Shown here one piece after another: positions 80 through 39,319 of a stretch of DNA of 39,319 bases. The notes beneath the pieces were generated by a model, which did not search any database, was not told the origin of the DNA, and worked only from the letters and a program-made list of their open reading frames with translations. Positions within the stretch are counted from its first letter, which is position 1; every line of letters begins with the position of its first letter. Made by a program: the position numbers and the translations under genes. This DNA is from Treponema sp. (GTDB lineage: Bacteria > Spirochaetota > Spirochaetia > Treponematales > Breznakiellaceae), in NCBI GenBank assembly GCA_031283575.1, contig JAITBL010000201.1:1-39319 (forward strand), in the 5' to 3' direction.

Positions 80-106
80 GTAAATCCTTATAATATAAGG
101 ATTTAC
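80..106. repeat. 27-bp perfect AT-rich palindrome GTAAATCCTTATA-A-TATAAGGATTTAC; candidate operator or alternative hairpin
   Basis: Read directly: 13-bp arms around one central A. A third copy of the 8-mer AAATCCTT at 117-124 could pair with the right arm instead. Contains TATAAT at 89-94. The half-site resembles the palindrome at 35631-35663. Confidence 0.85.
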
Positions 107-127
107 GCAAGTAAAAAAATCCTTCGG

Positions 128-201
128 TCGGGCAACCCGGATTCGAACCGGGGACCCCAAGTCCCCCAGACTTGTACGCTAACCAACTGCGCTATTGCCC
201 G
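128..201 (-). tRNA. tRNA-Pro (anticodon GGG)
   Basis: The reverse complement folds as a cloverleaf: acceptor CGGGCAA/TTGCCCG, D-arm GCGC-AGTTGGTTA-GCGT, anticodon stem CAAGT/ACTTG with loop CTGGGGG, T-arm CCCGG-TTCGAAT-CCGGG, discriminator A. 74 nt; CCA is not encoded. Confidence 0.9.
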
Positions 202-15204: not shown

Positions 15205-15252
15205 TTGTCAATCTGTCAAGAGCGGCATTTGTCAATAGAGACATCTGTCAAT
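15205..15252 (+). promoter_or_regulatory. four direct copies of TGTCAA(T/G) in the 64-bp gap upstream of the antiporter gene
   Basis: TTGTCAAT 15205-15212, CTGTCAAG 15213-15220, TTGTCAAT 15229-15236, CTGTCAAT 15245-15252. The last copy forms TGtCAATAT (extended -10-like) ahead of the GAGGAG SD. Confidence 0.6.
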
Positions 15253-15267
15253 ATCGAGGAGAATACG

Positions 15268-17367
15268 ATGAATGTAAGCGAAGCAATGGCGGGCCTCGCC
15301 CTGCAGATTGGAGTGATTTTATTTGCGGTGCGGCTGGGCGGAAGGCTGGTAAAAAAAGCCGGCGTCCCCGGCGTGTTGGGCGAACTGCTCGCCGGCGCCG
15401 TCATCGGGCCCTACGCGCTGGGCGGCATTCCCTTCCCCGGCTTTTCCGCAGGGCTTTTTCCCCTTGGCAAGGCGCTGGAAACAAGCGGAGGCGCTTTGGC
15501 GGTAAGCCCCGAACTCTACGCCTTCGCGTCGGTCGCGTCGGTCATTCTGCTTTTTTCATCGGGACTCGAAACGGACCTGGGGCTTTTTCTCCGTTATTCC
15601 GTGGCGGGCGGCATTATCGGCATAGGCGGCGTGGCCGTTTCCTTCGCGCTGGGCGCCGTCAGCGGAATAACGCTGCTGGGACTGCCGTTTATGGATCCCC
15701 GCTGCCTCTTTTTGGGAATTCTTTCCACGGCAACCTCCGTGGGAATAACCGCCCGCATTTTGCGGGATCAGAAAAAAATGGATTCGCCGGAAGGAGTTAC
15801 GATACTGGCGGCGGCGGTGTTCGACGACGTACTGGGAATCATCGCGCTGGCCGTGGTGCTGGGCGTTGTCGCGGTACTCTCCGGCGCGGGTTCCGGCGGC
15901 CTTTCCGCTTCGGGCATTCTTGCCATCGCGGGCAAGGCGTTCGGTATCTGGCTTGGCTTTACCGCGCTGGGCCTTGCCTTTTCAAAACAGCTCGGTGAAT
16001 TTTTAAAATTGTTCAAAACAAGTTTTGATTTTTCCATTCTCGCCCTGGGCATCGCCCTGCTTCTTGCCGGCCTTTTTGAAAAGCAGGGCCTGGCGATGAT
16101 CATCGGCGCCTATGTGTCGGGAATGTCCCTTTCCAAAACCGACATCGCGGCAGTGATACAGGAACGGCTTCGATCGCTCTACGAATTTTTTGTCCCGATT
16201 TTTTTTGCCGTCATGGGAATGATGGTGAATGTGAAAGAAATTTTTTCGCCGCCCGTATTAATTTTCGGCGCCGTCTATACGCTCCTCGCCATAGCGGCGA
16301 AGCTGGCCGGCTGCGGATTTCCCGCGCTCGCGCTGGGCTTTAACGGCAGGGGCGCCCTCCGTATCGGTGCGGGCATGGTTCCCCGCGGCGAAGTCGCCCT
16401 GATCATCGCCGGCATAGGTTTGGCGGCGGGTATTTTGGACAACCGTATCTTTGCCGGCATCATCCTGATGACCCTGGTTACCACGCTGGCCGCGCCGCCG
16501 CTGCTTTCGGCTTTTTTACGCCTGCCAGGATCGGGGACCCGCAGGCCGGTCAGGGACGAAGACAGTTCCCAGAGCGTATGGGACTTTGGCTCGGACGAAA
16601 TCGCCGACCTTGTTACCGACAGCCTCCTTAAGGATCTCCGTTCCGAGGGCTTTTATGTACAGATAATGAACATGGACGAGGGCCTTTCCCAGGCGCGAAA
16701 AAACGACATCGTCCTTGCCATCGCGCGAAAAGACAATGCCCTTGCCATAGAAACCCTCAGCGCCGACATGCCCCTGGTAAAAACGGCCGTCTACGAAGTG
16801 ATCCTGCGCCTTAATGACACGATACAAAAACTCAAGGACTCCTCGAATCCGCATGAATTAAAAAAAGAAATCGCCGGCCTTGAGGGCCGTACCGAAGAGG
16901 GCGTCCTCTCGCTCATTACCCCGTCGCTGATAAACCTCGACCTGAAGGGTGAAAGCAAAAACGAAATTATCACCGAACTGGTTGATCTGCTCTCCTCGCA
17001 CGGAAAACTCCTTGACCGCGATGAGGTACTGAAAGCCGTCCTGCAGCGTGAAGCTTCGATGAGTACCGGCATGGAACACGGCATTGCCCTGCCCCACGCC
17101 AAAACCGGCGGCGTGGACGATATCTGCGTTGCCGTGGGCGTCAAGAAAGCGGGCGTTGATTTTGGCTCCATTGACGGGGAAAAATCCCGCCTCTTTATCA
17201 TGGTGATTTCGCCGAAAAAAGTTTCGGGGCCCCACATTCAGTTTTTGGCGGCCATCGGCGCCGTCCTGCGCGACGACATACTCCGCGAGGGGGTTATCGC
17301 GTCGGATTCGCGGGACGAAGCGGCCATGTTGCTGCGCAGCGTGAAGATTCCGCTTAAAGCGCCATGA
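15268..17367 (+). CDS. CPA2-type cation/proton antiporter fused to a C-terminal PTS EIIA (PtsN/fructose-type) domain
   Basis: About 12 TM helices with a Na+/H+-exchanger-like N-terminus (LGELLAGAVIGPYALGG). The C-terminal roughly 150 aa carry the EIIA motif GIALPHAKTGGV. ATG at 15268 is preceded by GAGGAG. The TTG at 15205 in the track is unlikely. Confidence 0.8.
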   Translation: MNVSEAMAGLALQIGVILFAVRLGGRLVKKAGVPGVLGELLAGAVIGPYALGGIPFPGFSAGLFPLGKALETSGGALAVSPELYAFASVASVILLFSSGLETDLGLFLRYSVAGGIIGIGGVAVSFALGAVSGITLLGLPFMDPRCLFLGILSTATSVGITARILRDQKKMDSPEGVTILAAAVFDDVLGIIALAVVLGVVAVLSGAGSGGLSASGILAIAGKAFGIWLGFTALGLAFSKQLGEFLKLFKTSFDFSILALGIALLLAGLFEKQGLAMIIGAYVSGMSLSKTDIAAVIQERLRSLYEFFVPIFFAVMGMMVNVKEIFSPPVLIFGAVYTLLAIAAKLAGCGFPALALGFNGRGALRIGAGMVPRGEVALIIAGIGLAAGILDNRIFAGIILMTLVTTLAAPPLLSAFLRLPGSGTRRPVRDEDSSQSVWDFGSDEIADLVTDSLLKDLRSEGFYVQIMNMDEGLSQARKNDIVLAIARKDNALAIETLSADMPLVKTAVYEVILRLNDTIQKLKDSSNPHELKKEIAGLEGRTEEGVLSLITPSLINLDLKGESKNEIITELVDLLSSHGKLLDRDEVLKAVLQREASMSTGMEHGIALPHAKTGGVDDICVAVGVKKAGVDFGSIDGEKSRLFIMVISPKKVSGPHIQFLAAIGAVLRDDILREGVIASDSRDEAAMLLRSVKIPLKAP

Positions 17368-20827: not shown

Positions 20828-21250
20828 TTACAGACGGTTTCTCTGTAATTCCGTCCTGATTTCTTCGGTAGGGCGCGAAAAAATTTCCACTTCGCGCTCG
20901 GTACCGGTCATGCTGCATTGTCCCTCGAAGAGGACCCCGTCGGCAATACGGAGCCGCGAAGCCGCGACATCGCCCCTGACGGAAGCCCCGCTGAGCAGGT
21001 CGATTTTATCCACCGCCCGAACCTGTCCGCTCACCGAGCCGTGGACGGTAAGGTTGGTTACCGAAATATGGTCCGCCTCGACGACGGCGCCCTTATCGAC
21101 AATAAGCGCCCCCGTGGCCTCTATCGTACCCCGAAACCTGCCCTGTATGCAAAGGGTATCTTTAAAACGAAGAAAACCGTCAAAACTCGTCGTGCTCCCC
21201 AGAACGATCAGCTTCGACTTGTTTTTACGCTGTCTTCTTCCCCGATTCAT
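20828..21250 (-). CDS. bactofilin-family polymer-forming cytoskeletal protein
   Basis: Beta-helical repeat pattern (FDGFLRFKDTLCIQGRFRGTIEATGALIVDKGAVVEADHISVTNLTVHGSVSGQV...) typical of DUF583/bactofilin. ATGA overlap with the upstream response regulator. Confidence 0.8.
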   Translation of the reverse strand: MNRGRRQRKNKSKLIVLGSTTSFDGFLRFKDTLCIQGRFRGTIEATGALIVDKGAVVEADHISVTNLTVHGSVSGQVRAVDKIDLLSGASVRGDVAASRLRIADGVLFEGQCSMTGTEREVEIFSRPTEEIRTELQRNRL

Positions 21251-21999
21251 CCTTCTTCCTGTTCTCCGGCCGCATCCGAAGAATGAAGGTTCCCCTCCGG
21301 ATGCGTTAAACGGTGTATTTGTTTTTCCAGTATACTAAGCCCTATTTCGTTTTTCTTCAAGTTCTCCCATTCGGTCATGGTCCGCTCGATACGGGCGTCA
21401 AGTCCGGCGATATTTTTACGCACTATCTGGGTTTTCTTTTGAAGGCTCTCGAGGAGGCCCGAGAGATACCCGATTTCCCTGCTGCTTCCGGTAATTTGGG
21501 CGATGGTTTCGTCCAGTTCATCCATTGAGTGAACAAAATCCGCCACATCCTGCCTCATGTCGGCGCTCAGCTCTTCCGCCAGGGAGAGCCGCGATTCGCG
21601 GGCGACAATCTGGGCGTAGAGTTCGCGGTTTCGCAGCACCGCGCGAAGACGGGCCAACACCTCGGAAAAGTTAAAAGGCTTGGTGATATAATCGTCGATG
21701 CCCAGCTCAAAGCCTTCCACCTTGTCCTTGACATCGTCCAGAGCCGAAAGCATGACGATGGGAATTTCCTGGTATTTGGGATCGGCCTTGAGTATCCGCG
21801 TAAGCTCCCAGCCCGACATCCTGGGCATAATGTTATCCAGCAGGATCAGATCGGGAAGGAATTTTTTTACTTTTTCCAGGCCCTCTTCACCGTTATCGGC
21901 CTTTTCAACCGCAAAGCCGAGTTTTGAGAGCATAACGTCGAAAAACTCAAGATTTATGGATTCATCATCAATAACGAGTATTTTCTTTCGGGTATTCAT
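21247..21999 (-). CDS. response regulator: REC domain plus C-terminal coiled-coil, with no DNA-binding output domain
   Basis: KILVIDDE...LILLDNIMPRMSGWE...DDYITKPF receiver motifs, followed by roughly 120 aa of helical/coiled-coil sequence. Confidence 0.85.
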   Translation of the reverse strand: MNTRKKILVIDDESINLEFFDVMLSKLGFAVEKADNGEEGLEKVKKFLPDLILLDNIMPRMSGWELTRILKADPKYQEIPIVMLSALDDVKDKVEGFELGIDDYITKPFNFSEVLARLRAVLRNRELYAQIVARESRLSLAEELSADMRQDVADFVHSMDELDETIAQITGSSREIGYLSGLLESLQKKTQIVRKNIAGLDARIERTMTEWENLKKNEIGLSILEKQIHRLTHPEGNLHSSDAAGEQEEG

Positions 22000-32537: not shown

Positions 32538-33586
32538 TGGCTCTATCGAGGGTTGAAAAAGCGCGCCGGCCGCGTAAACCCCGCAAAAAACTTGCTTTCG
32601 AAGACGCCGTCAGGGCGGCCCTGGTTGCGGCGGCGGTAATCTGCGCGGCGGTGCTTGGCGCGGGCGGCTTTTTCGCGGTCCGTTCCGTTCTGGCATCCCC
32701 TTCTCTCCCGCCGCCCGCGCTCGACGCCGGGGACGGCGAAACGGACGGCGCCGCGCCGGCCGTACCGCCCGAGGCCTACCCTGGGGACGCGGGCGGAAAC
32801 ACGGACGGCGGGACCGGTATACTCCCCGAACTGGAAGAGGCGATACGCCAACTGGATTCCGGAACAACGCCGCCGGTCCCGCCGCCCGCGGCCCCGCCTG
32901 TCATGCCGGCCGAGCGAAAGGGCGTTCTGGTATTTGTGATCGACGACGCCGGCAACAATCTGCGGGAACTGGAGCCCTTTCTCGCCTTTCCCGGCCCCCT
33001 CACCATCGCGGTACTGCCCGCGCTCCCCAATTCGGCGGAAGCGGCAAGGCGTATTCGCGCCGCCGGCAAGGAAGCTTTTCTTCATCAGCCCATGGAACCC
33101 CTCGGCGCCCAGGACCCGGGTCCGGGCGCGATCAAAACCGGCATGACTCCAGCCGAAGTCAAAGCGGTACTTGACAAAAACCTCGACGAAATCGGGCCCG
33201 TAACGGGGGTCAACAACCATGAGGGTTCGCGGGCGACCATGGACAGGGAAATCATGAAAGCCCTGCTTGAGGGGATTCATGCCCGGCGCCTGGTTTTTCT
33301 TGACTCGCGGACCATAGCCGACACCGCGGGACCCGCCGCCGCCAAAGAACTGGGACTCGACATAGCCCAGCGCGACATCTTTCTTGATAACGAACAGGAT
33401 AGGGATTCGATCATCAAAATGATTAACGAAGGGATGAAGAAGGCCCAAAGCTCGGGCGTGGCGATTATGATCGGCCACACCTGGTCGCCGCATCTTGCCG
33501 AAATCCTTACGCGGCTTTATCCCTCTTTTGTCAAAGAGGGATACTATCTGGCCACGGTGGGCGCTATTCTTGACGCGGGAAAATGA
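32537..33586 (+). CDS. divergent polysaccharide deacetylase family protein (YibQ-like) with an N-terminal TM anchor
   Basis: VLVFVIDDAGNN...LPALPNS...HQPMEP...NNHEGSRATMD pattern. The ATG overlaps the parB stop (TAATG). Confidence 0.75.
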   Translation: MALSRVEKARRPRKPRKKLAFEDAVRAALVAAAVICAAVLGAGGFFAVRSVLASPSLPPPALDAGDGETDGAAPAVPPEAYPGDAGGNTDGGTGILPELEEAIRQLDSGTTPPVPPPAAPPVMPAERKGVLVFVIDDAGNNLRELEPFLAFPGPLTIAVLPALPNSAEAARRIRAAGKEAFLHQPMEPLGAQDPGPGAIKTGMTPAEVKAVLDKNLDEIGPVTGVNNHEGSRATMDREIMKALLEGIHARRLVFLDSRTIADTAGPAAAKELGLDIAQRDIFLDNEQDRDSIIKMINEGMKKAQSSGVAIMIGHTWSPHLAEILTRLYPSFVKEGYYLATVGAILDAGK

Positions 33587-33643
33587 TCCGCCCGTGAATA
33601 TCGCGCAAGCGGCGCCAAAATAACCGTATACTATGGATGTGTT

Positions 33644-34759
33644 TTGAAAGTTCTGGGTATTGAAACTTCCTGCGATGAATGCGCGGCGGCCGTCGTGGAA
33701 AACGGCCGCGTACTCTCCAATGTGGTGGCGACGCAGATACCGGTACACGCTCCCTATCAGGGAGTGGTGCCGGAACTGGCAAGCCGTACGCACACGGTCT
33801 GGATATACGGCGTCGTCAAGGAAGCGCTTGACCGCGCCGGCATGACCAGCGCCGATGTCGAAGGCGTCGCCGCGACCGCCTTTCCGGGCCTTCTGGGATC
33901 GCTGCTGGTCGGGCTGCATTTTGCCAAGGCCTTTGCCTGGGCGCGGCAACTTCCCTTTATTGCCGTCGATCATCTGCTGGCCCATCTTTACGCGCCGCGT
34001 CTTGCCGGCGCAAACGCGGAAACAGCCGCCTATCCCTTTTTGGGCCTGCTCGTTTCGGGGGGGCACAGCGTTATCTGCCGCGTGGAGAATTTCGACAAGG
34101 TGAGCGTTCTGGGAAGCACCATCGACGATGCCGCGGGCGAAGCCTTCGACAAAATCGCCAAGCACTACGGCATGGGTTATCCTGGCGGGCCGGCCATCGA
34201 CGCCCTCGCCCGCGGGGGAAACGCCGATACCTTTCAGTTCCCCCTTCCCAATCTTTACAAAACGGGAAAAAACGGCCGAAACCACCGTTATGACGTTTCC
34301 TATTCGGGACTCAAAACGGCGGTGGTGAACCAGCGCGAACAATTCCGCGTCAAACCGCGCCGCGCGGACAGGGTAACGGAAACATACGGCGCGGATACGG
34401 CGTCAAAGCCTTACACGGATTCGAAGGCGGAAATTTCCGAAAGCGAAAAGGCCGATATAGCCGCTTCGTTTCAGAAAACGGCGATCGACATTTTGTTCCG
34501 CGCGGTGGTCCGCGCCGCGGAGGACACGGGCCTCTCCACCATTGTGGCGGGGGGCGGCGTGGCGGCAAACAGCTGTCTTCGCGCCCGCGCCGCCGGATAT
34601 CCGCAGCTGCGTTTTATTTTTCCGCCTTTGGAATACTGCGGCGACAACGGCGCCATGGTGGCCGGCATTGGGGAACAGTATCTGCTAAGTGGGGAAACTT
34701 CGCCTTTCGAGTTAAGCGCGTCGCCGAGGATCAAATCGCTCAAGCGCGTCTATCCCTAG
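33644..34759 (+). CDS. tsaD: tRNA N6-adenosine threonylcarbamoyltransferase
   Basis: MKVLGIETSCDE N-terminus, the HLLAHLY His pair and GGGVAAN. TTG start. Contains an insertion of about 40 aa (RVKPRRADRVTETYGADTASKPYTDSKAEISE). Confidence 0.9.
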   Translation: MKVLGIETSCDECAAAVVENGRVLSNVVATQIPVHAPYQGVVPELASRTHTVWIYGVVKEALDRAGMTSADVEGVAATAFPGLLGSLLVGLHFAKAFAWARQLPFIAVDHLLAHLYAPRLAGANAETAAYPFLGLLVSGGHSVICRVENFDKVSVLGSTIDDAAGEAFDKIAKHYGMGYPGGPAIDALARGGNADTFQFPLPNLYKTGKNGRNHRYDVSYSGLKTAVVNQREQFRVKPRRADRVTETYGADTASKPYTDSKAEISESEKADIAASFQKTAIDILFRAVVRAAEDTGLSTIVAGGGVAANSCLRARAAGYPQLRFIFPPLEYCGDNGAMVAGIGEQYLLSGETSPFELSASPRIKSLKRVYP

Positions 34760-35580
34760 GCCAGATACGCCTTAAGATCGGCGCTCGACTCGCGCATTTG
34801 GCGGAGGGCGCGCAATTCGATCTGGCGGACCGTTTCGGGCGATATGCCCATTTTCGCGCCTATTCTTTTCAGGGTATAACGCTCGCCGCCCTGCAGCTGG
34901 TAGCGGTAAATCAGAATGTTTTTTTCGCGTTCTTTTAATTTGCCAAGGATTCGCATGGCGGCTTCGCGGGAATTTTTTTTGAGAAACACCCGCTCGGGGC
35001 TGTACGTGTAATCTTCCTGATAGGTCACCAGGGACGACGTTTCGTCTTCATTTCCGGTATCCAGAGACACGATGCCGTTGGCAATATTGAGCACCAAATC
35101 GATCATCCGCTCGCTTACGCCGATTTCCCCGGAAATTTCCTGATTGCTGGGCTCGCGGCAAAGACGCTGGCTCAGGCTGTGAAAGGCCTGCTGTATGCGG
35201 CGGAGCAGCGCCTCTTTACGGTGGGGGAGCCGTATTATACGCTGGCGGTTGGACAGATAACGCAGAATACCCTGCTTGATCCACCACGCCGCGTATGTCG
35301 AAAAATGAACCTTTCTGTCGGGATCAAAACGGCCGGCGGCGGTCATAAGGCCCACGTTGCCTTCCTGGATCAGATCCAGCAGTGAGACGCCGGGACTGAG
35401 GTAGGCGCGGGCAATCTTGACAACCAGGCGCAGATTTGCCTCGACAAGACGGCGCTTGGCGTCCTTGTCCCCGCTTCGGATGCGTTTTGCCAGTTCCTGC
35501 TCTTCCTCCGGGCTGACCAGGGGAAAAGCCTTGATCTGGTTAAAATAAGTCTGTAAGGCGCTCATTCTTTTTTCCACCAT
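34756..35580 (-). CDS. sigma-70-family RNA polymerase sigma factor, RpoS-like (group 2-like)
   Basis: Region 2 (NLRLVVKIARAY, DLIQEGNVGLMTAAGRFD, FSTYAAWWIKQ), a region 3 linker (IRLPHRK) and a region 4 HTH (TLKRIGAKMGISPETVRQIELRALRQM). An alternative start at M6 (35565) has GGTGGA upstream. Confidence 0.88.
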   Translation of the reverse strand: MVEKRMSALQTYFNQIKAFPLVSPEEEQELAKRIRSGDKDAKRRLVEANLRLVVKIARAYLSPGVSLLDLIQEGNVGLMTAAGRFDPDRKVHFSTYAAWWIKQGILRYLSNRQRIIRLPHRKEALLRRIQQAFHSLSQRLCREPSNQEISGEIGVSERMIDLVLNIANGIVSLDTGNEDETSSLVTYQEDYTYSPERVFLKKNSREAAMRILGKLKEREKNILIYRYQLQGGERYTLKRIGAKMGISPETVRQIELRALRQMRESSADLKAYLA

Positions 35581-35590
35581 ACCATCTTAA

Positions 35591-35606
35591 TGCAATTTTC
35601 GTGCCA
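35591..35606 (-). promoter_or_regulatory. sigma-54 (RpoN) -24/-12 promoter TGGCACG-AAAA-TTGCA
   Basis: Minus strand reads CTTGGCACGAAAATTGCATTAAGATGGTATG. GG at 35605-35604 and GC at 35593-35592. The predicted +1 is about 35580, the A of the sigma-factor ATG. Confidence 0.7.
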
Positions 35607-35630
35607 AGTTTTCCGGTTTTTGGGTAAAAA

Positions 35631-35663
35631 TTCATAATTCTTTATAGTATAAAGAATTATGAA
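35631..35663. repeat. 33-bp perfect AT-rich palindrome TTCATAATTCTTTATA-G-TATAAAGAATTATGAA
   Basis: 16-bp arms with one central nucleotide. Centred about 67 bp upstream of the predicted sigma-54 start. The centre reads TATAGT on the plus strand and TATACT on the minus strand. Confidence 0.9.
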
Positions 35664-35824
35664 CGCGCCGCTTTGCCCTTTGGCAAAATGCCGGAGCGAT
35701 CTATGTAAAAATAGATACAGATAGGCCCGCGGGGTGTATAGAAAAAGTTACTGTTTCTCCAAATCTGTTTACTTCGCGAACGGAAGCCTTTAATCGCTTT
35801 GTACTGCCGTCGGGCCGGAACTTA

Positions 35825-35840: not shown

Positions 35841-36296
35841 ATGATCAAGTTGGATGAATTTGGAATCAAGCTTAAGGAAAAGGGAAAGGACGCTCATTAC
35901 ACGATCAAGTGGTCACCCCTTTCCAAAGCCGACCGATGGACGATCAACGCCAAGGTGCCGTCGGTGGCGGGTATCTACGAGGTCTACTGGATGGACGACC
36001 ACGAACACCTCCGCATGCTGTCGGTGGGCCAGACCCATTACGGCGGGCTCCGCTCGGAGCTGCGGCGCCTTACCGATCCCGAGCTTAACGGCGACGCCGT
36101 GGCCCGAAAAACCCTTGAGGACGAAGAAATCTGGTTTCGTTACGCCCCCTGCAATTCCGCCAAAATGATGGCCGATGTGATCTGGTTTTTCCAGGCGACC
36201 TATTTTCCCGAAAAGAACGATGCGGAACATTCCGGCCGCTTCGAAAAAATTTACATGAACGAATCGGCGCCGGATAAATTGATTTGGGTTCCCTAG
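35841..36296 (+). CDS. hypothetical 151-aa protein with a GIY-YIG-like motif
   Basis: AGIYEVYWMDDHEHLRMLSVGQTHYGGLRSELRRL resembles GIY-x(n)-YIG-x-T...L..R. The start is taken at the ATG after the -10 box rather than the upstream TTG at 35799. Confidence 0.55.
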   Translation: MIKLDEFGIKLKEKGKDAHYTIKWSPLSKADRWTINAKVPSVAGIYEVYWMDDHEHLRMLSVGQTHYGGLRSELRRLTDPELNGDAVARKTLEDEEIWFRYAPCNSAKMMADVIWFFQATYFPEKNDAEHSGRFEKIYMNESAPDKLIWVP

Positions 36297-36309: not shown

Positions 36310-36957
36310 ATGATCGAGTACATTGTCAGCGAAAACATTGATGACCGCGTTCTTTCCAGAACGGCAGCCCTGTTTGAGGAAGGCGCCCTCGCGGCGTTTC
36401 CTTCGGACACAAGCTGGCTTATCGGCTGTTCGTTCAGGTCCAGGGGAGGCCTAAAAAAACTGCGGGCGCTCGCCTCAAAGGGCGCGGAAACGGCCGGACA
36501 GCGCGAGGAAAGAAACTTTACCCTTCTCTGTTCGGATATCGCCCAGTTTGGGGAATTCTGCAGTATCGACAATACCCGCTTCCGTTTGATCAAGCGGCTT
36601 ACTCCCGGCCCGTATGTGTTTATATTGAAAACCCTTTTGGGTACTGAAAAAGCGCTTAACCTGAAACGCGGCGAAATCGGCGTCCGTATCCCGAACCATC
36701 CGGTTCCCCTGGCGTTAATCAACACGCTCGGTTTTCCGCTCTATTCCGTAACCGCCAAGAAGACCATGCTGGAATTGGATGCGGAGTATGATGAGGGAGA
36801 GGAACTTTTCGACGGCGGCTGGGAACTTGATGAAATTGAAGGGCTGGATATAATTCTCGACACCGGAGATGAACGGCCCCATATTCACACCACCGTCCTT
36901 GATCTTCGGGACGAAACAGAACTGATACGCGCTGGGGCGGGTCTCTGGCCTGTTTAG
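36310..36957 (+). CDS. Sua5/YciO/YrdC-family (L-threonylcarbamoyladenylate synthase-like) protein
   Basis: AFPSDTSWLIGC, LTPGPYVFIL and the IGVRIPNHPVPLALI pattern of the YrdC-like fold. GGTGA SD. Confidence 0.75.
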   Translation: MIEYIVSENIDDRVLSRTAALFEEGALAAFPSDTSWLIGCSFRSRGGLKKLRALASKGAETAGQREERNFTLLCSDIAQFGEFCSIDNTRFRLIKRLTPGPYVFILKTLLGTEKALNLKRGEIGVRIPNHPVPLALINTLGFPLYSVTAKKTMLELDAEYDEGEELFDGGWELDEIEGLDIILDTGDERPHIHTTVLDLRDETELIRAGAGLWPV

Positions 36958-36974: not shown

Positions 36975-36998
36975 TTGCTTATCTGTCGAGATGAGCAA
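36975..36998. other. 10-bp-stem hairpin between convergent genes, with a third copy of the arm downstream
   Basis: TTGCTTATCT-gtcg-AGATGAGCAA, and TTGCTCATCT again at 37013-37022. No U-tract on either strand. Confidence 0.35.
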
Positions 36999-37016
36999 GC
37001 GGGACGAAGCCGTTGC

Positions 37017-37319
37017 TCATCTATCCCGTTCCCAGTGCGGGCGATTTTCGTCGTCGCTTTCAGGCTCGCTTTCCTGTTCCACGGCGGCCTGCGCGGCTGC
37101 TTCCGCGGCCTCGCGGGCTTTTTTTTCATCACCGGCGAGTTTGCGGTTATACATAAAAATGGCCAGCGCGCCAAACACAATAACGTCCATAAAATAACGT
37201 TCCATTTTTTCAGGCAGTTTAAGGTGGAGGAATTCCGCCACCAGCGCGTAGAGTATAAGGATAATCCCCAGCGCGACCGCAATTCCAAGGAGCAATTTTC
37301 TGGTTGGTTTAAACTTCAT
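37017..37319 (-). CDS. small two-TM membrane protein with an acidic C-terminal tail
   Basis: 100 aa. TM helices LLLGIAVALGIILILYALVAEFL and VIVFGALAIFMY. Tail EQESEPESDDE. AAAGGAAA SD. Confidence 0.6.
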   Translation of the reverse strand: MKFKPTRKLLLGIAVALGIILILYALVAEFLHLKLPEKMERYFMDVIVFGALAIFMYNRKLAGDEKKAREAAEAAAQAAVEQESEPESDDENRPHWERDR

Positions 37320-37355
37320 GCTGATTTCCTTTTTGTTCGCGTCCTGTTTGAGCCG

Positions 37356-39319
37356 CTAATCTTTCTGCCCCAGTTCCAGGATCAGATCAACTTCGCCCCG
37401 CGAAAGTTTGAGCACATTGGCAATGCGGTCCCGCTCCCAGCCCTGACGGGCAAGCTTAATCACATTTTCGCGGGCGGCTATGGTTGGAGCGCCGCGGCCG
37501 GTTTTCGATGTTTTTCCCTCGTCCTTGAGAATGGCTTCCATGAGCTTAAGCTGCTCCCGTGTCTGGCGGTTGATATCGGCAAAACGGGTTTCGGTCTGGG
37601 CCAGCCACTCGCGGGCAATCTGCATTTTTTCGATACGCCCTTCGATGCCGGCAAGTTCCGTGTCGAGAAGCGCGAGGCGTTCGCCCGCTTCTTTGGCTTT
37701 TTCACTGGCGGCGGCAAGGGCTTCGATATCCGGTTTAAGGGCGTCCAGTTCGTCGGTGGAGCGCGCAATGTCTTCGCCGCATTTACGCAGGGCAGCCTCG
37801 GTTTCTTCCAGTACCGAAAAATTCCGTTCGATGGAAACATGGGTTTCGTCGAGGATTTGATTTTTCTTTTCCAGCCGCAGAAACTTTTCGTCGGCGGCGG
37901 CAATGGAATCGCCCAGACGGCGTATCGCCACCTGAATCCCCTGGAGGGTATCGTCGGAATTGGTGACTTCGCGCAGGCGCTCTTCCACGCTTTGCGAAGT
38001 TTCGATGAGCCGCGCGAAATCTTTTTCCATGATTTCAAGGTGGTGCTTTTCGGTAAGAAAGCGGGTCATCTTGGAATTCACTTCGTCTTCAAGGCGGCGT
38101 ATCTTGACAAACTCGGCCTCAAGCCGGGCGGCCTCGGCGCGGCGCTGATCGATGCCGGCAATTTCCGCCTTGAGGTCTTCCATGTTTCGTTCAAGATTGG
38201 TTTTGAGTTCTTCGGCTTTTTCAAAGATCCGCGTCTGGGAAGTAAAGTCCTTGACCCCCTGGCGCAGTTCCTCGATTTGGCCCTTAAGGCCTGCGATGCG
38301 GTTGTCCGTATCGCCGGCAAGCTCCCTGTTTTTGCGGCGGGTTTCTTCAAGCCCTTCTTCGGCCTCGCGGATCTGGCCCTGATAGCGGGTCTTCCAGTCT
38401 TCCAGAGCGTCTTCGGTGTCGCGAAGCTGGACGGCGTAACGGGCCTGCCAGTCTTCCTGTTCCGTCCGTATCGTCTGCTGGACATCGCGGAAACGGTTTC
38501 CCCATTCGTCGATTTGGGCGCTCAGCTCGCCGAGGCGCGTTTCGGTTTCCCGCTGGTTTTGTTTTATCGTTTCGGTAAGGGCCAAATGGTAACGGCCCGC
38601 TTCGGCCTTAAAGTCGTTTTCCGCCAGCGTGCGGGCGTCTTCGAGGCCCGCCTCAAGACCCGCCCGCCATTCGGCGAGGCGGGTTTCAATATCTTCGCGG
38701 CGGTGAGCAATGTCGGCAAAAAATTCATCCTCAAAGACCCGCAGTTTTTCCGAAACATTTTCGTACGCGCGGTTTTTAAGGGCGTTGAGTTCCTGTTCGA
38801 CGCCGGCAATATCGCCTTTAAGATTCTCTATGGAAGAGAGAAATTCCGCGGCGGCCCGCTCCCGTTCCTGTTTCTGCTCTTCCTCAAATACGACAAAATC
38901 GCCGCGGACCCGATCTTCCGCGTTCTCCATCAAAACACGAAGCTGCGCTTCGAGTTTTGCCGCGTCATCGGCGGCCGTGTAAATCCGCTCCCACTGGCGT
39001 TCCTGCACCTCGGCGTATTCGGCAAGCTTGTCTTCGGTTGCCTTGAGAATTTTGCTCTCCGCTTCCGCCGCGCGATCGGACAACACATTCCCCAGACGGG
39101 CAATGCGCTCTTCGGTTTCCGCGGCGGCGGCTTCCCACTGTTTGCGCTGTGAAAGGGCCAGAGCGTCCATGGCGTCAAGGTCGCGCTGCCAGGCGCCGCG
39201 GTATTCAAGCTGCTTTTCCTCGAGGTCCTGATGTTCCCGCTTCCAGTCTTCGCGGTAAGCTTTGACCAGCGTCCGTATTTCTTCCACCCGTATTTTGGCG
39301 TTTTCGTGATACTCGTTGA
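37356..39319 (-). CDS. very large coiled-coil protein with a C-terminal HTH-like module; 5' end lies outside the window
   Basis: The reading frame stays open to the window edge. The sequence is E/R/K/A/L-rich with a heptad character and a recurring acidic-Trp motif. The C-terminus is PTIAARENVIKLARQGWERDRIANVLKLSRGEVDLILEL. Confidence 0.7.
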   Translation of the reverse strand, partial: NEYHENAKIRVEEIRTLVKAYREDWKREHQDLEEKQLEYRGAWQRDLDAMDALALSQRKQWEAAAAETEERIARLGNVLSDRAAEAESKILKATEDKLAEYAEVQERQWERIYTAADDAAKLEAQLRVLMENAEDRVRGDFVVFEEEQKQERERAAAEFLSSIENLKGDIAGVEQELNALKNRAYENVSEKLRVFEDEFFADIAHRREDIETRLAEWRAGLEAGLEDARTLAENDFKAEAGRYHLALTETIKQNQRETETRLGELSAQIDEWGNRFRDVQQTIRTEQEDWQARYAVQLRDTEDALEDWKTRYQGQIREAEEGLEETRRKNRELAGDTDNRIAGLKGQIEELRQGVKDFTSQTRIFEKAEELKTNLERNMEDLKAEIAGIDQRRAEAARLEAEFVKIRRLEDEVNSKMTRFLTEKHHLEIMEKDFARLIETSQSVEERLREVTNSDDTLQGIQVAIRRLGDSIAAADEKFLRLEKKNQILDETHVSIERNFSVLEETEAALRKCGEDIARSTDELDALKPDIEALAAASEKAKEAGERLALLDTELAGIEGRIEKMQIAREWLAQTETRFADINRQTREQLKLMEAILKDEGKTSKTGRGAPTIAARENVIKLARQGWERDRIANVLKLSRGEVDLILELGQKD

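Follow-up and report, generated by a model that had tools for sequence, protein, structure and literature searches.

The locus and its promoter element

The stretch of DNA considered here (39,319 nucleotides (nt) of a Treponema sp. assembly, GCA_031283575.1, contig JAITBL010000201.1; hereafter the window) carries on its minus strand a gene for an alternative sigma factor of the sigma-70 family and, directly before the start codon of this gene, a predicted sigma-54 (RpoN) promoter with its characteristic -24/-12 element. The window has a GC content of 57%, and the intergenic region upstream of the sigma gene one of 39%. This region also harbors a perfect palindrome, separated from the -24/-12 element by a spacer rich in A/T tracts, and is shared with a divergent gene of a conserved spirochaete protein (Table 1).

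Read on the minus strand from 35606 to 35591, the element (TGGCACGAAAATTGCA) satisfies all 16 positions of the consensus TGGCACG-N4-TTGCW, with the GG at 35605/35604 (-25/-24) and the GC at 35593/35592 (-13/-12), hence in GG-N10-GC spacing. In the same direction, c35608 TTGGCACGAAAATTGCA 35591 is followed by ttaagatggt and then by the ATG at 35580..35578, the whole segment from promoter through ATG (35608..35578) being cTTGGCACGAAAATTGCAttaagatggtATG. An earlier note on this DNA had described a perfect RpoN consensus at 35578-35606, placed so that 12 nt counted from the -12 C (35592) lead to the A of the ATG (35580), and both the match and the arithmetic agree with the sequence. When the two strands of the 39,319 bases were scanned, the perfect pattern (TGGCACGNNNNTTGCW) was found once; none of 100 dinucleotide-preserving shuffles contained a perfect TGGCACG-N4-TTGCW match, and the analytic expectation from base composition is 0.011 per window. 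With the relaxed pattern TGGYAY-N5-YTGCW (TGGYAYNNNNNYTGCW), this site is again the only match in the window.

The element was then compared across an orthologous set made up of the window and 14 distinct loci (designated below by numbers with the prefix L), whose proteins share 51-89% identity. Four of these loci come from scans of contig collections, dominated by generic RpoD/RpoS, and ten from individual homologue look-ups; the set includes Treponema sp. TIM-1, Breznakiella homolactica (L163), an Alkalispirochaeta metagenome-assembled genome (MAG), a Spirochaetaceae MAG and termite-gut MAGs. Each of the 14 other loci has a single occurrence of the relaxed motif, just before the sigma gene and in its coding orientation, while 156 non-orthologous sigma-70 loci (813 kb) yield five matches anywhere. 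One of these five lies at 2865(+) of L031, from a Candidatus Falkowbacteria MAG, 136 nt upstream of an RpoD-like gene, and is probably due to chance. An alignment of the 15 loci anchored on the element shows that TTGGCA.G (-27..-20) and TTGC (-15..-12) are invariant, whereas the spacer of 3-4 nt and the flanks vary; over -26..-10 the mean information content reaches 1.48 bits, and outside this interval it is 0.4-0.6 bits. The -24/-12 element thus stands out cleanly as the phylogenetic footprint of a sigma-54 promoter, and the promoter reading of the earlier note gains from its recurrence in 15/15 orthologous loci belonging to several spirochaete lineages.

Could the match nevertheless be fortuitous, or represent the binding site of another DNA-binding protein? 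A single site in a single window would, taken alone, leave room for chance even at so low an expectation. However, position, strand and GG/GC are the same in the other orthologous loci, down to the most distant, and a chance match is excluded because the footprint has been kept while the flanks have diverged. The element is moreover not palindromic, and departs from the sigma-54 consensus at none of its conserved positions, so that both explanations appear extremely improbable.

Compared with classical sigma-54 promoters (glnAp2, nifH, or the SigL promoters of C. difficile, TTGGCACGGCAATTGCTTA; PMC7438776), the element has the same bases at all conserved positions and the same GG-N10-GC spacing, and the dyad-symmetric element upstream could play the part of an enhancer. 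The locus differs from these promoters in its target, which is a sigma factor and not a metabolic or flagellar operon, and in that no adjacent gene for an enhancer-binding protein was found.

Table 1. Features of the sigma factor locus (window coordinates; a dot stands for a feature without strand)
Feature	Position	Strand	Basis
Alternative sigma-70-family factor, 274 amino acids, RpoS-like, group 2/3	34756..35580	-	Pfam, NCBIfam and PDB matches
Alternative in-frame start M6	35563..35565	-	Present in the window and L161, absent in L162
Predicted transcription start, +1 = A35580 (±2 nt), first base of the ATG	35578..35582	-	Inferred from geometry
Predicted sigma-54 (-24/-12) promoter CTTGGCACGAAAATTGCA	35591..35608	-	Unique perfect match; conservation in 15/15 orthologous loci
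A/T-tract-rich spacer AATTTTTACCCAAAAACCGGAAAA between palindrome and -24 element	35609..35632	-	A-/T-runs in most orthologous loci
Perfect palindrome CATAATTCTTTATA-c-TATAAAGAATTATG, candidate activator site	35633..35661	.	Conserved family TTCCTTA-N5-TAAGGAA
Conserved spirochaete protein, 151 amino acids, divergent, same intergenic region	35841..36296	+	Syntenic in L162-L165 and L168-L171

The sigma factor

The product of the gene is a sigma factor of group-2-like architecture: Pfam finds regions 1.2 (r1_2, residues 8-39), 2 (r2, 45-114), 3 (r3, 125-196) and 4 (r4, 212-264) and no other, region 1.1 and the non-conserved insert being absent. Its homologues are found in Treponema sp. MAGs, in 'Spirochaetia bacterium' assemblies from termite guts and in Breznakiella homolactica. 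Together with a SpiroCoCo-family protein encoded nearby, they assign the window to a Treponema-like spirochaete of the termite-gut type (Breznakiellaceae). The presence of a sigma-70-family open reading frame (ORF) with regions 2-4 downstream of the promoter, as claimed beforehand, is therefore confirmed by the Pfam regions, to which region 1.2 is added.

The assignment of the protein to the group-2/RpoS type, claimed at the same time, stands only in part. In its favor are the architecture and the best NCBIfam family, which is the proteobacterial RpoS model TIGR02394 (236.2 bits), with RpoD/SigA models scoring slightly below. On the other hand, this score is far under the cut-off of 378.7 bits, a second RpoS model (NF004207) gives 219.3 bits for a curated threshold of 394, and the protein reaches the NCBIfam cut-offs of neither RpoS nor RpoD, which counts against a formal RpoS identity. 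Matches in the PDB place Firmicute SigA (182 bits) and RpoS (180 bits) equally close. The protein accordingly resembles the RpoS/group-2 sigmas of Proteobacteria by its top-scoring family, by its set of regions 1.2-4 without 1.1 and by its comparable length class, and departs from them by a score well below threshold and by a similarity to SigA that equals its similarity to RpoS. As these cut-offs are not reached, 'RpoS' is used here as a functional analogy only. In a profile search of 1.84 billion representatives aimed at Borrelia RpoS, ten AT-rich candidates were looked up among the top 150, and those that bore a name came from Treponema.

Region 4.2 of the protein reads S-P-E-T-V-R-Q-I-E where the corresponding sequence of sigma-70 is T-R-E-R-I-R-Q-I-E, and because of this difference, recognition of the -35 element by the 274-residue factor probably differs from that of sigma-70.

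Start codon and leader

An in-frame TAA situated 9 nt upstream of ATG35580 makes a start of the ORF further upstream impossible. Among the orthologous loci, the interval between the -12 C and the start codon varies widely: 12 nt separate them in the window, 13 nt in L161 (89% protein identity) and in L162 (69% identity), about 23-44 nt in nine loci, and 83-183 nt in three loci. In the 12 loci that possess a leader, a GGAG-type Shine-Dalgarno sequence is found 5-10 nt before the start in every case (12/12), being weaker in L171. In the window, L161 and L162, there is no Shine-Dalgarno sequence before the ATG, and the gap of 11-12 nt between promoter and ATG leaves no room for one.

The N-terminal alignment makes M1 the homologous start, and the N-terminus of the window protein (MVEKR) conforms to the pattern M-x-E/D-K-K/R/Q conserved in relatives whose start is preceded by a Shine-Dalgarno sequence. 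In L162 (MADKQTSNLQSYF), there is no other in-frame ATG, GTG or TTG before the conserved region 1.2, so that the ATG at the predicted +1 is the only plausible start of this locus. Because of the 12-13 nt spacing, the missing Shine-Dalgarno sequence and the lack of an alternative start in L162, a leaderless or near-leaderless sigma-54 transcript in the sub-clade formed by the window, L161 and L162 is the best reading, which we favor slightly.

Several points weigh against this reading. The placement of +1 at A35580 is a prediction from geometry; transcription starts of sigma-54 promoters can vary by 1-2 nt; and M6, 15 nt downstream, could serve as start codon in the window and L161, which would provide an ordinary short leader. 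The earlier note had left the choice between a leaderless transcript and initiation at M6 with a GGTGGA Shine-Dalgarno sequence, and the two halves of this statement fared differently, as the promoter-ATG geometry recurs in L161 and L162 while the GGTGGA is not conserved in L161.

The second possibility, a genuine sigma-54 promoter followed by translation from M6 (ATG 35565) of a conventional mRNA with a leader of 15-17 nt, has some arguments of its own. M6 exists in both the window and L161, in the window it is preceded by GGTGGA at a distance of 7 nt, the leader would match in length the 11-14 nt leaders of L002, L003 and L171, and the shorter protein would still be intact, since Pfam region 1.2 begins at residue 8. 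Yet L162 shares the 13-nt geometry while having neither M6 nor any other in-frame start before region 1.2, and L161, despite its 89% identity, has GACAGA at the place of GGTGGA, which weakens the M6 alternative since no conserved Shine-Dalgarno sequence is left. The first five residues, which this reading would leave untranslated, follow the conserved N-terminal pattern, and a GGAG-type Shine-Dalgarno sequence, present in every relative that possesses a leader, is missing before M6. Initiation at M6 is consequently held to be rather unlikely, though it is the chief competitor of the leaderless reading in the window and L161.

Another locus presents a related configuration. In L170 (2490..2576), an N-terminal extension of 25 codons begins at an in-frame ATG situated 11 nt past the -12 C (the JGI protein has 304 residues), and the homologous start, which reads MTRKK and has a GGGAG Shine-Dalgarno sequence, lies 75 nt further; the upstream ATG may be fortuitous or may represent another potential leaderless start.

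Leaderless mRNAs have been mapped for five genes of Chlamydia pneumoniae (PMC3333780), and the window resembles them in that the 5' end of the transcript is predicted to fall on the AUG and that there is neither a Shine-Dalgarno sequence nor room for it. The promoter class is different, being sigma-54 here, and the 5' end is in the present case predicted from sequence. No described precedent for a sigma-54 promoter linked to a leaderless transcript was found in the literature searched.

The upstream palindrome

The perfect palindrome of the intergenic region has its center at 35647, which places it about 42 bp before the GG (around -67). Its consensus TTCCTTA-N5-TAAGGAA, with at most two mismatches, is present in 11/15 orthologous loci, always and only upstream of the sigma gene, and matches once in the 813 kb of unrelated loci. 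The distance from its center to the GG is also conserved (39.5-41.5 bp in 12 loci when degenerate copies are counted), L168 being apart with 118 bp. The 7-5-7 architecture with a variable center fits a dimeric DNA-binding protein, and the most economical guess is that the palindrome would be bound by the cognate enhancer-binding protein or by a co-activator; the A/T-tract spacer that separates it from the promoter may be intrinsically bent. Enhancers are usually located 100-150 bp from sigma-54 promoters (PMC3037356), which is a clear difference with the candidate described here, at about 42 bp from the GG.

A function as RNA hairpin or terminator was considered for the palindrome, and that of terminator was rejected, as it does not lie 3' of any gene and its longest versions have T-runs before and A-runs after on both strands.

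A second perfect palindrome of the same family (GTAAATCCTTATA-a-TATAAGGATTTAC) occurs at 81..105(+), just 3' of a tRNA-Pro(ggg) gene at 126..201(-). No sigma-54 site is found near this copy, a point that counts against the proposed role of the palindrome, and the protein that binds it may therefore have other targets; the copy may point to a regulator acting at several places in the genome, or else to a palindromic element that is repeated.

L169 (2404..2436) and L170 (2424..2456) have the same 14-nt arms (TTTTTATTTCCTTA) and centers (ctgta and tacag, respectively) that are exact reverse complements of each other, and symmetric double substitutions are seen in the arms of other loci. The centers look as if flipped through a hairpin or cruciform, the paired substitutions may have arisen in the same way, and together they suggest a possible hairpin-mediated homogenization of the DNA palindrome.

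RpoN, activators and the proposed cascade

If the element is a sigma-54 promoter, the genomes that carry it should encode RpoN and an activator. A Pfam scan of 37 candidate ORFs of the window, 30 of which matched a family, gave no Sigma54 and no Sigma54_activat domain, and this weighs against the proposal; the statement in the earlier note that the window encodes no enhancer-binding protein is thereby upheld, and no Sigma54_activat domain was found in the fetched flanks of the related loci either. A response regulator of 250 residues encoded at 21247..21999(-), next to a bactofilin gene, has only a receiver domain according to Pfam, its C-terminal half being unassigned, and is not a sigma-54 activator.

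Three relatives sharing the promoter-sigma arrangement carry rpoN, twice on the same contig. In L165/L172, 2.2 kb separate the sigma gene from a cluster comprising rpoN, hpf and an EIIA(Ntr-type) gene; on the 58-kb contig Ga0466708_420759 (L168/L173), the L168 sigma gene and rpoN are about 16 kb apart; and the complete chromosome of B. homolactica (CP067089.2) contains both rpoN and the L163 sigma locus, whose promoter is at L163 9951. More generally, more than 100 RpoN proteins are listed from Treponema sp., T. primitia, Gracilinema and related MAGs. By analogy with L172, rpoN might lie just past the end of the window, and this idea was rejected, since the SpiroCoCo protein of 643 residues encoded there is not homologous to the 689-residue neighbor of rpoN.

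The arrangement as a whole is best explained, and with high probability, by an RpoN-dependent promoter that would control an RpoS-like alternative sigma-70-family factor, in a two-tier cascade of the Borrelia RpoN-to-RpoS type. Such a cascade had been proposed in the earlier note, and it is supported by the conserved adjacency of promoter and gene and by the fact that relatives encode RpoN, the control itself being deduced from these two observations. In this model, RpoN holoenzyme would bind GG(-24)/GC(-12) at 35605-35592 and form a closed complex, at a site designated by its sequence and its conservation. An AAA+ enhancer-binding protein encoded elsewhere, most plausibly a response regulator of the NtrC/Rrp2 type, would then open the complex with ATP, as ATP-driven opening by such proteins is established sigma-54 biology. 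The activator, or a co-activator, may bind TTCCTTA-N5-TAAGGAA around -67 with the help of the A-tract spacer, a step proposed with low confidence. Transcription would start within about 2 nt of A35580 and produce a near-leaderless mRNA with a 5'-terminal AUG, according to the geometry of three loci, and the sigma factor made from it would redirect core RNA polymerase to its own regulon.

Alternatively, most transcription of the gene might come from a more distant upstream promoter of the sigma-70 type that has escaped recognition, with a conditional contribution of the -24/-12 site, or none. The intergenic region is AT-rich (39% GC), with TATA-like hexamers within the palindrome, a simple scan of the E. 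coli type may miss spirochaete promoters, and in Borrelia both a sigma-54 promoter and an upstream promoter giving a long transcript are used for rpoS. Against this, no sigma-70-type promoter matching at least 9 of 12 positions was detected in the 218-bp intergenic region (35581-35798), a read-through transcript would still leave M1 without a Shine-Dalgarno sequence, and the 15/15 conservation of GG/GC amid variable surroundings would be left unexplained. The proposition is thus judged improbable as an account of the main transcription, and the two promoters could also coexist. A terminator scan of the same region returned nothing, and tRNA alone was matched in an Rfam scan of the whole window.

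Gene neighborhood

The sigma gene is monocistronic, since tsaD (33644..34759, plus strand) converges on it with stop codons that overlap at 34756-34759. Other neighbors are a gene for a Sua5/YciO/YrdC protein (36310..36957, plus strand) and parA/parB. The position of the sigma gene between tsaD and a member of the Sua5/YciO/YrdC family, which includes the t6A enzyme TsaC, recurs in orthologous loci. In Borrelia, tsaD (gcp) is presumably also located beside rpoS, but as BB_0769 and BB_0770 are given without functions in the papers found, no argument from synteny is made.

The protein of 151 residues encoded divergently from the sigma factor has 662 homologues, all from Treponema-like spirochaetes, with 70-86% identity, and is better conserved than the sigma factor itself. 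It has no match in Pfam, NCBIfam or PDB sequence searches, and its AlphaFold2 model, an alpha/beta fold (predicted local distance difference test, pLDDT, 79.6; predicted template modelling score, pTM, 0.76), gave no Foldseek match at E < 0.001.

Further along the window, the SpiroCoCo protein mentioned above (37356..39287, minus strand) is a coiled-coil protein matching SpiroCoCo_C, a spirochaete-specific NCBIfam family, at 295 bits, and its ORF may run past the window end. Two long ORFs, at 32543..34342(-) with 599 codons and at 36975..39152(+) with 725 codons, are shadow ORFs typical of GC-rich DNA and not genes, the former being antisense to a polysaccharide deacetylase gene and tsaD, and the latter to the SpiroCoCo gene. 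At 15205..17367(+), a fusion protein of 720 residues combines a Na+/H+ exchanger domain with an EIIA_2 domain of the phosphotransferase system (PTS); in the relative L172, a stand-alone EIIA_2 gene belongs to the rpoN-hpf cluster situated near the sigma gene.

Comparison with Borrelia and significance

The Lyme disease Borrelia has its central virulence switch in the RpoN-RpoS pathway, and Smith et al. 2007 are reportedly the source for the sigma-54 promoter at rpoS of B. burgdorferi. To our knowledge, Borrelia Rrp2 has been reported to act without an enhancer. In this Rrp2-RpoN-RpoS system, the sigma-54 promoter lies directly upstream of rpoS (PMC3037356, PMC6719511). The locus described here shares with it a canonical -24/-12 promoter immediately before a short alternative sigma gene in a spirochaete, seemingly the sole such site in tens of kilobases, and the principle of an activator-dependent sigma factor that would control a second one.

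The differences are also considerable. The host is Treponema-like, with a GC content of 57%, and probably lives in the termite gut. In Borrelia, a BosR-type direct repeat (TAAATTAAAT) abuts the TGGC, and it is missing here, with no copy in the window and nothing within two mismatches in the intergenic region; a conserved inverted repeat is found instead at about -67. The predicted leader of 0-2 nt is likewise a feature of the present locus.

To what extent is such a cascade known elsewhere? No description of an RpoN-RpoS cascade outside Borrelia was found in the searchable literature, an earlier mention in closed-access papers being possible, and Leptospira is said to lack RpoS. From the orthologous loci, a cascade of the RpoN-to-RpoS type looks widespread in spirochaetes. 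What is plausibly new here is a sigma cascade of the Borrelia type in another spirochaete lineage, of which the leaderless geometry and the palindromic candidate enhancer would be variations. A broader scenario can be put forward tentatively: the cascade would be an ancestral module of the Spirochaetia; TTCCTTA-N5-TAAGGAA, placed roughly four turns of the helix before the -24 element, would represent an ancestral enhancer of the Rrp2 type or a BosR-like site, since lost in Borrelia; and deletion of the leader in one sub-clade of termite-gut Treponema would have resulted in a leaderless mRNA. Taken as a whole, we regard this scenario as less likely than not.

If the wiring is conserved in Treponema-like bacteria, Breznakiella, Alkalispirochaeta and other Spirochaetaceae, the cascade would be older than the parasitic lifestyle of Borrelia, and a pathway regarded as a hallmark of this genus would be generalized, a view that rests entirely on sequence. 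It would also offer a concrete target for the sigma-54 systems of treponemes. For instance, the response regulator of the Hpk2/Rrp2 pair of T. denticola was still described as unstudied in 2025 (PMC12070737), and the conserved palindrome is a candidate enhancer relevant to Rrp2 homologues. Finally, can a sigma-54 holoenzyme yield translatable leaderless mRNAs? The 12-13 nt that separate promoter and ATG in this sub-clade would provide a natural case in which to ask this question.

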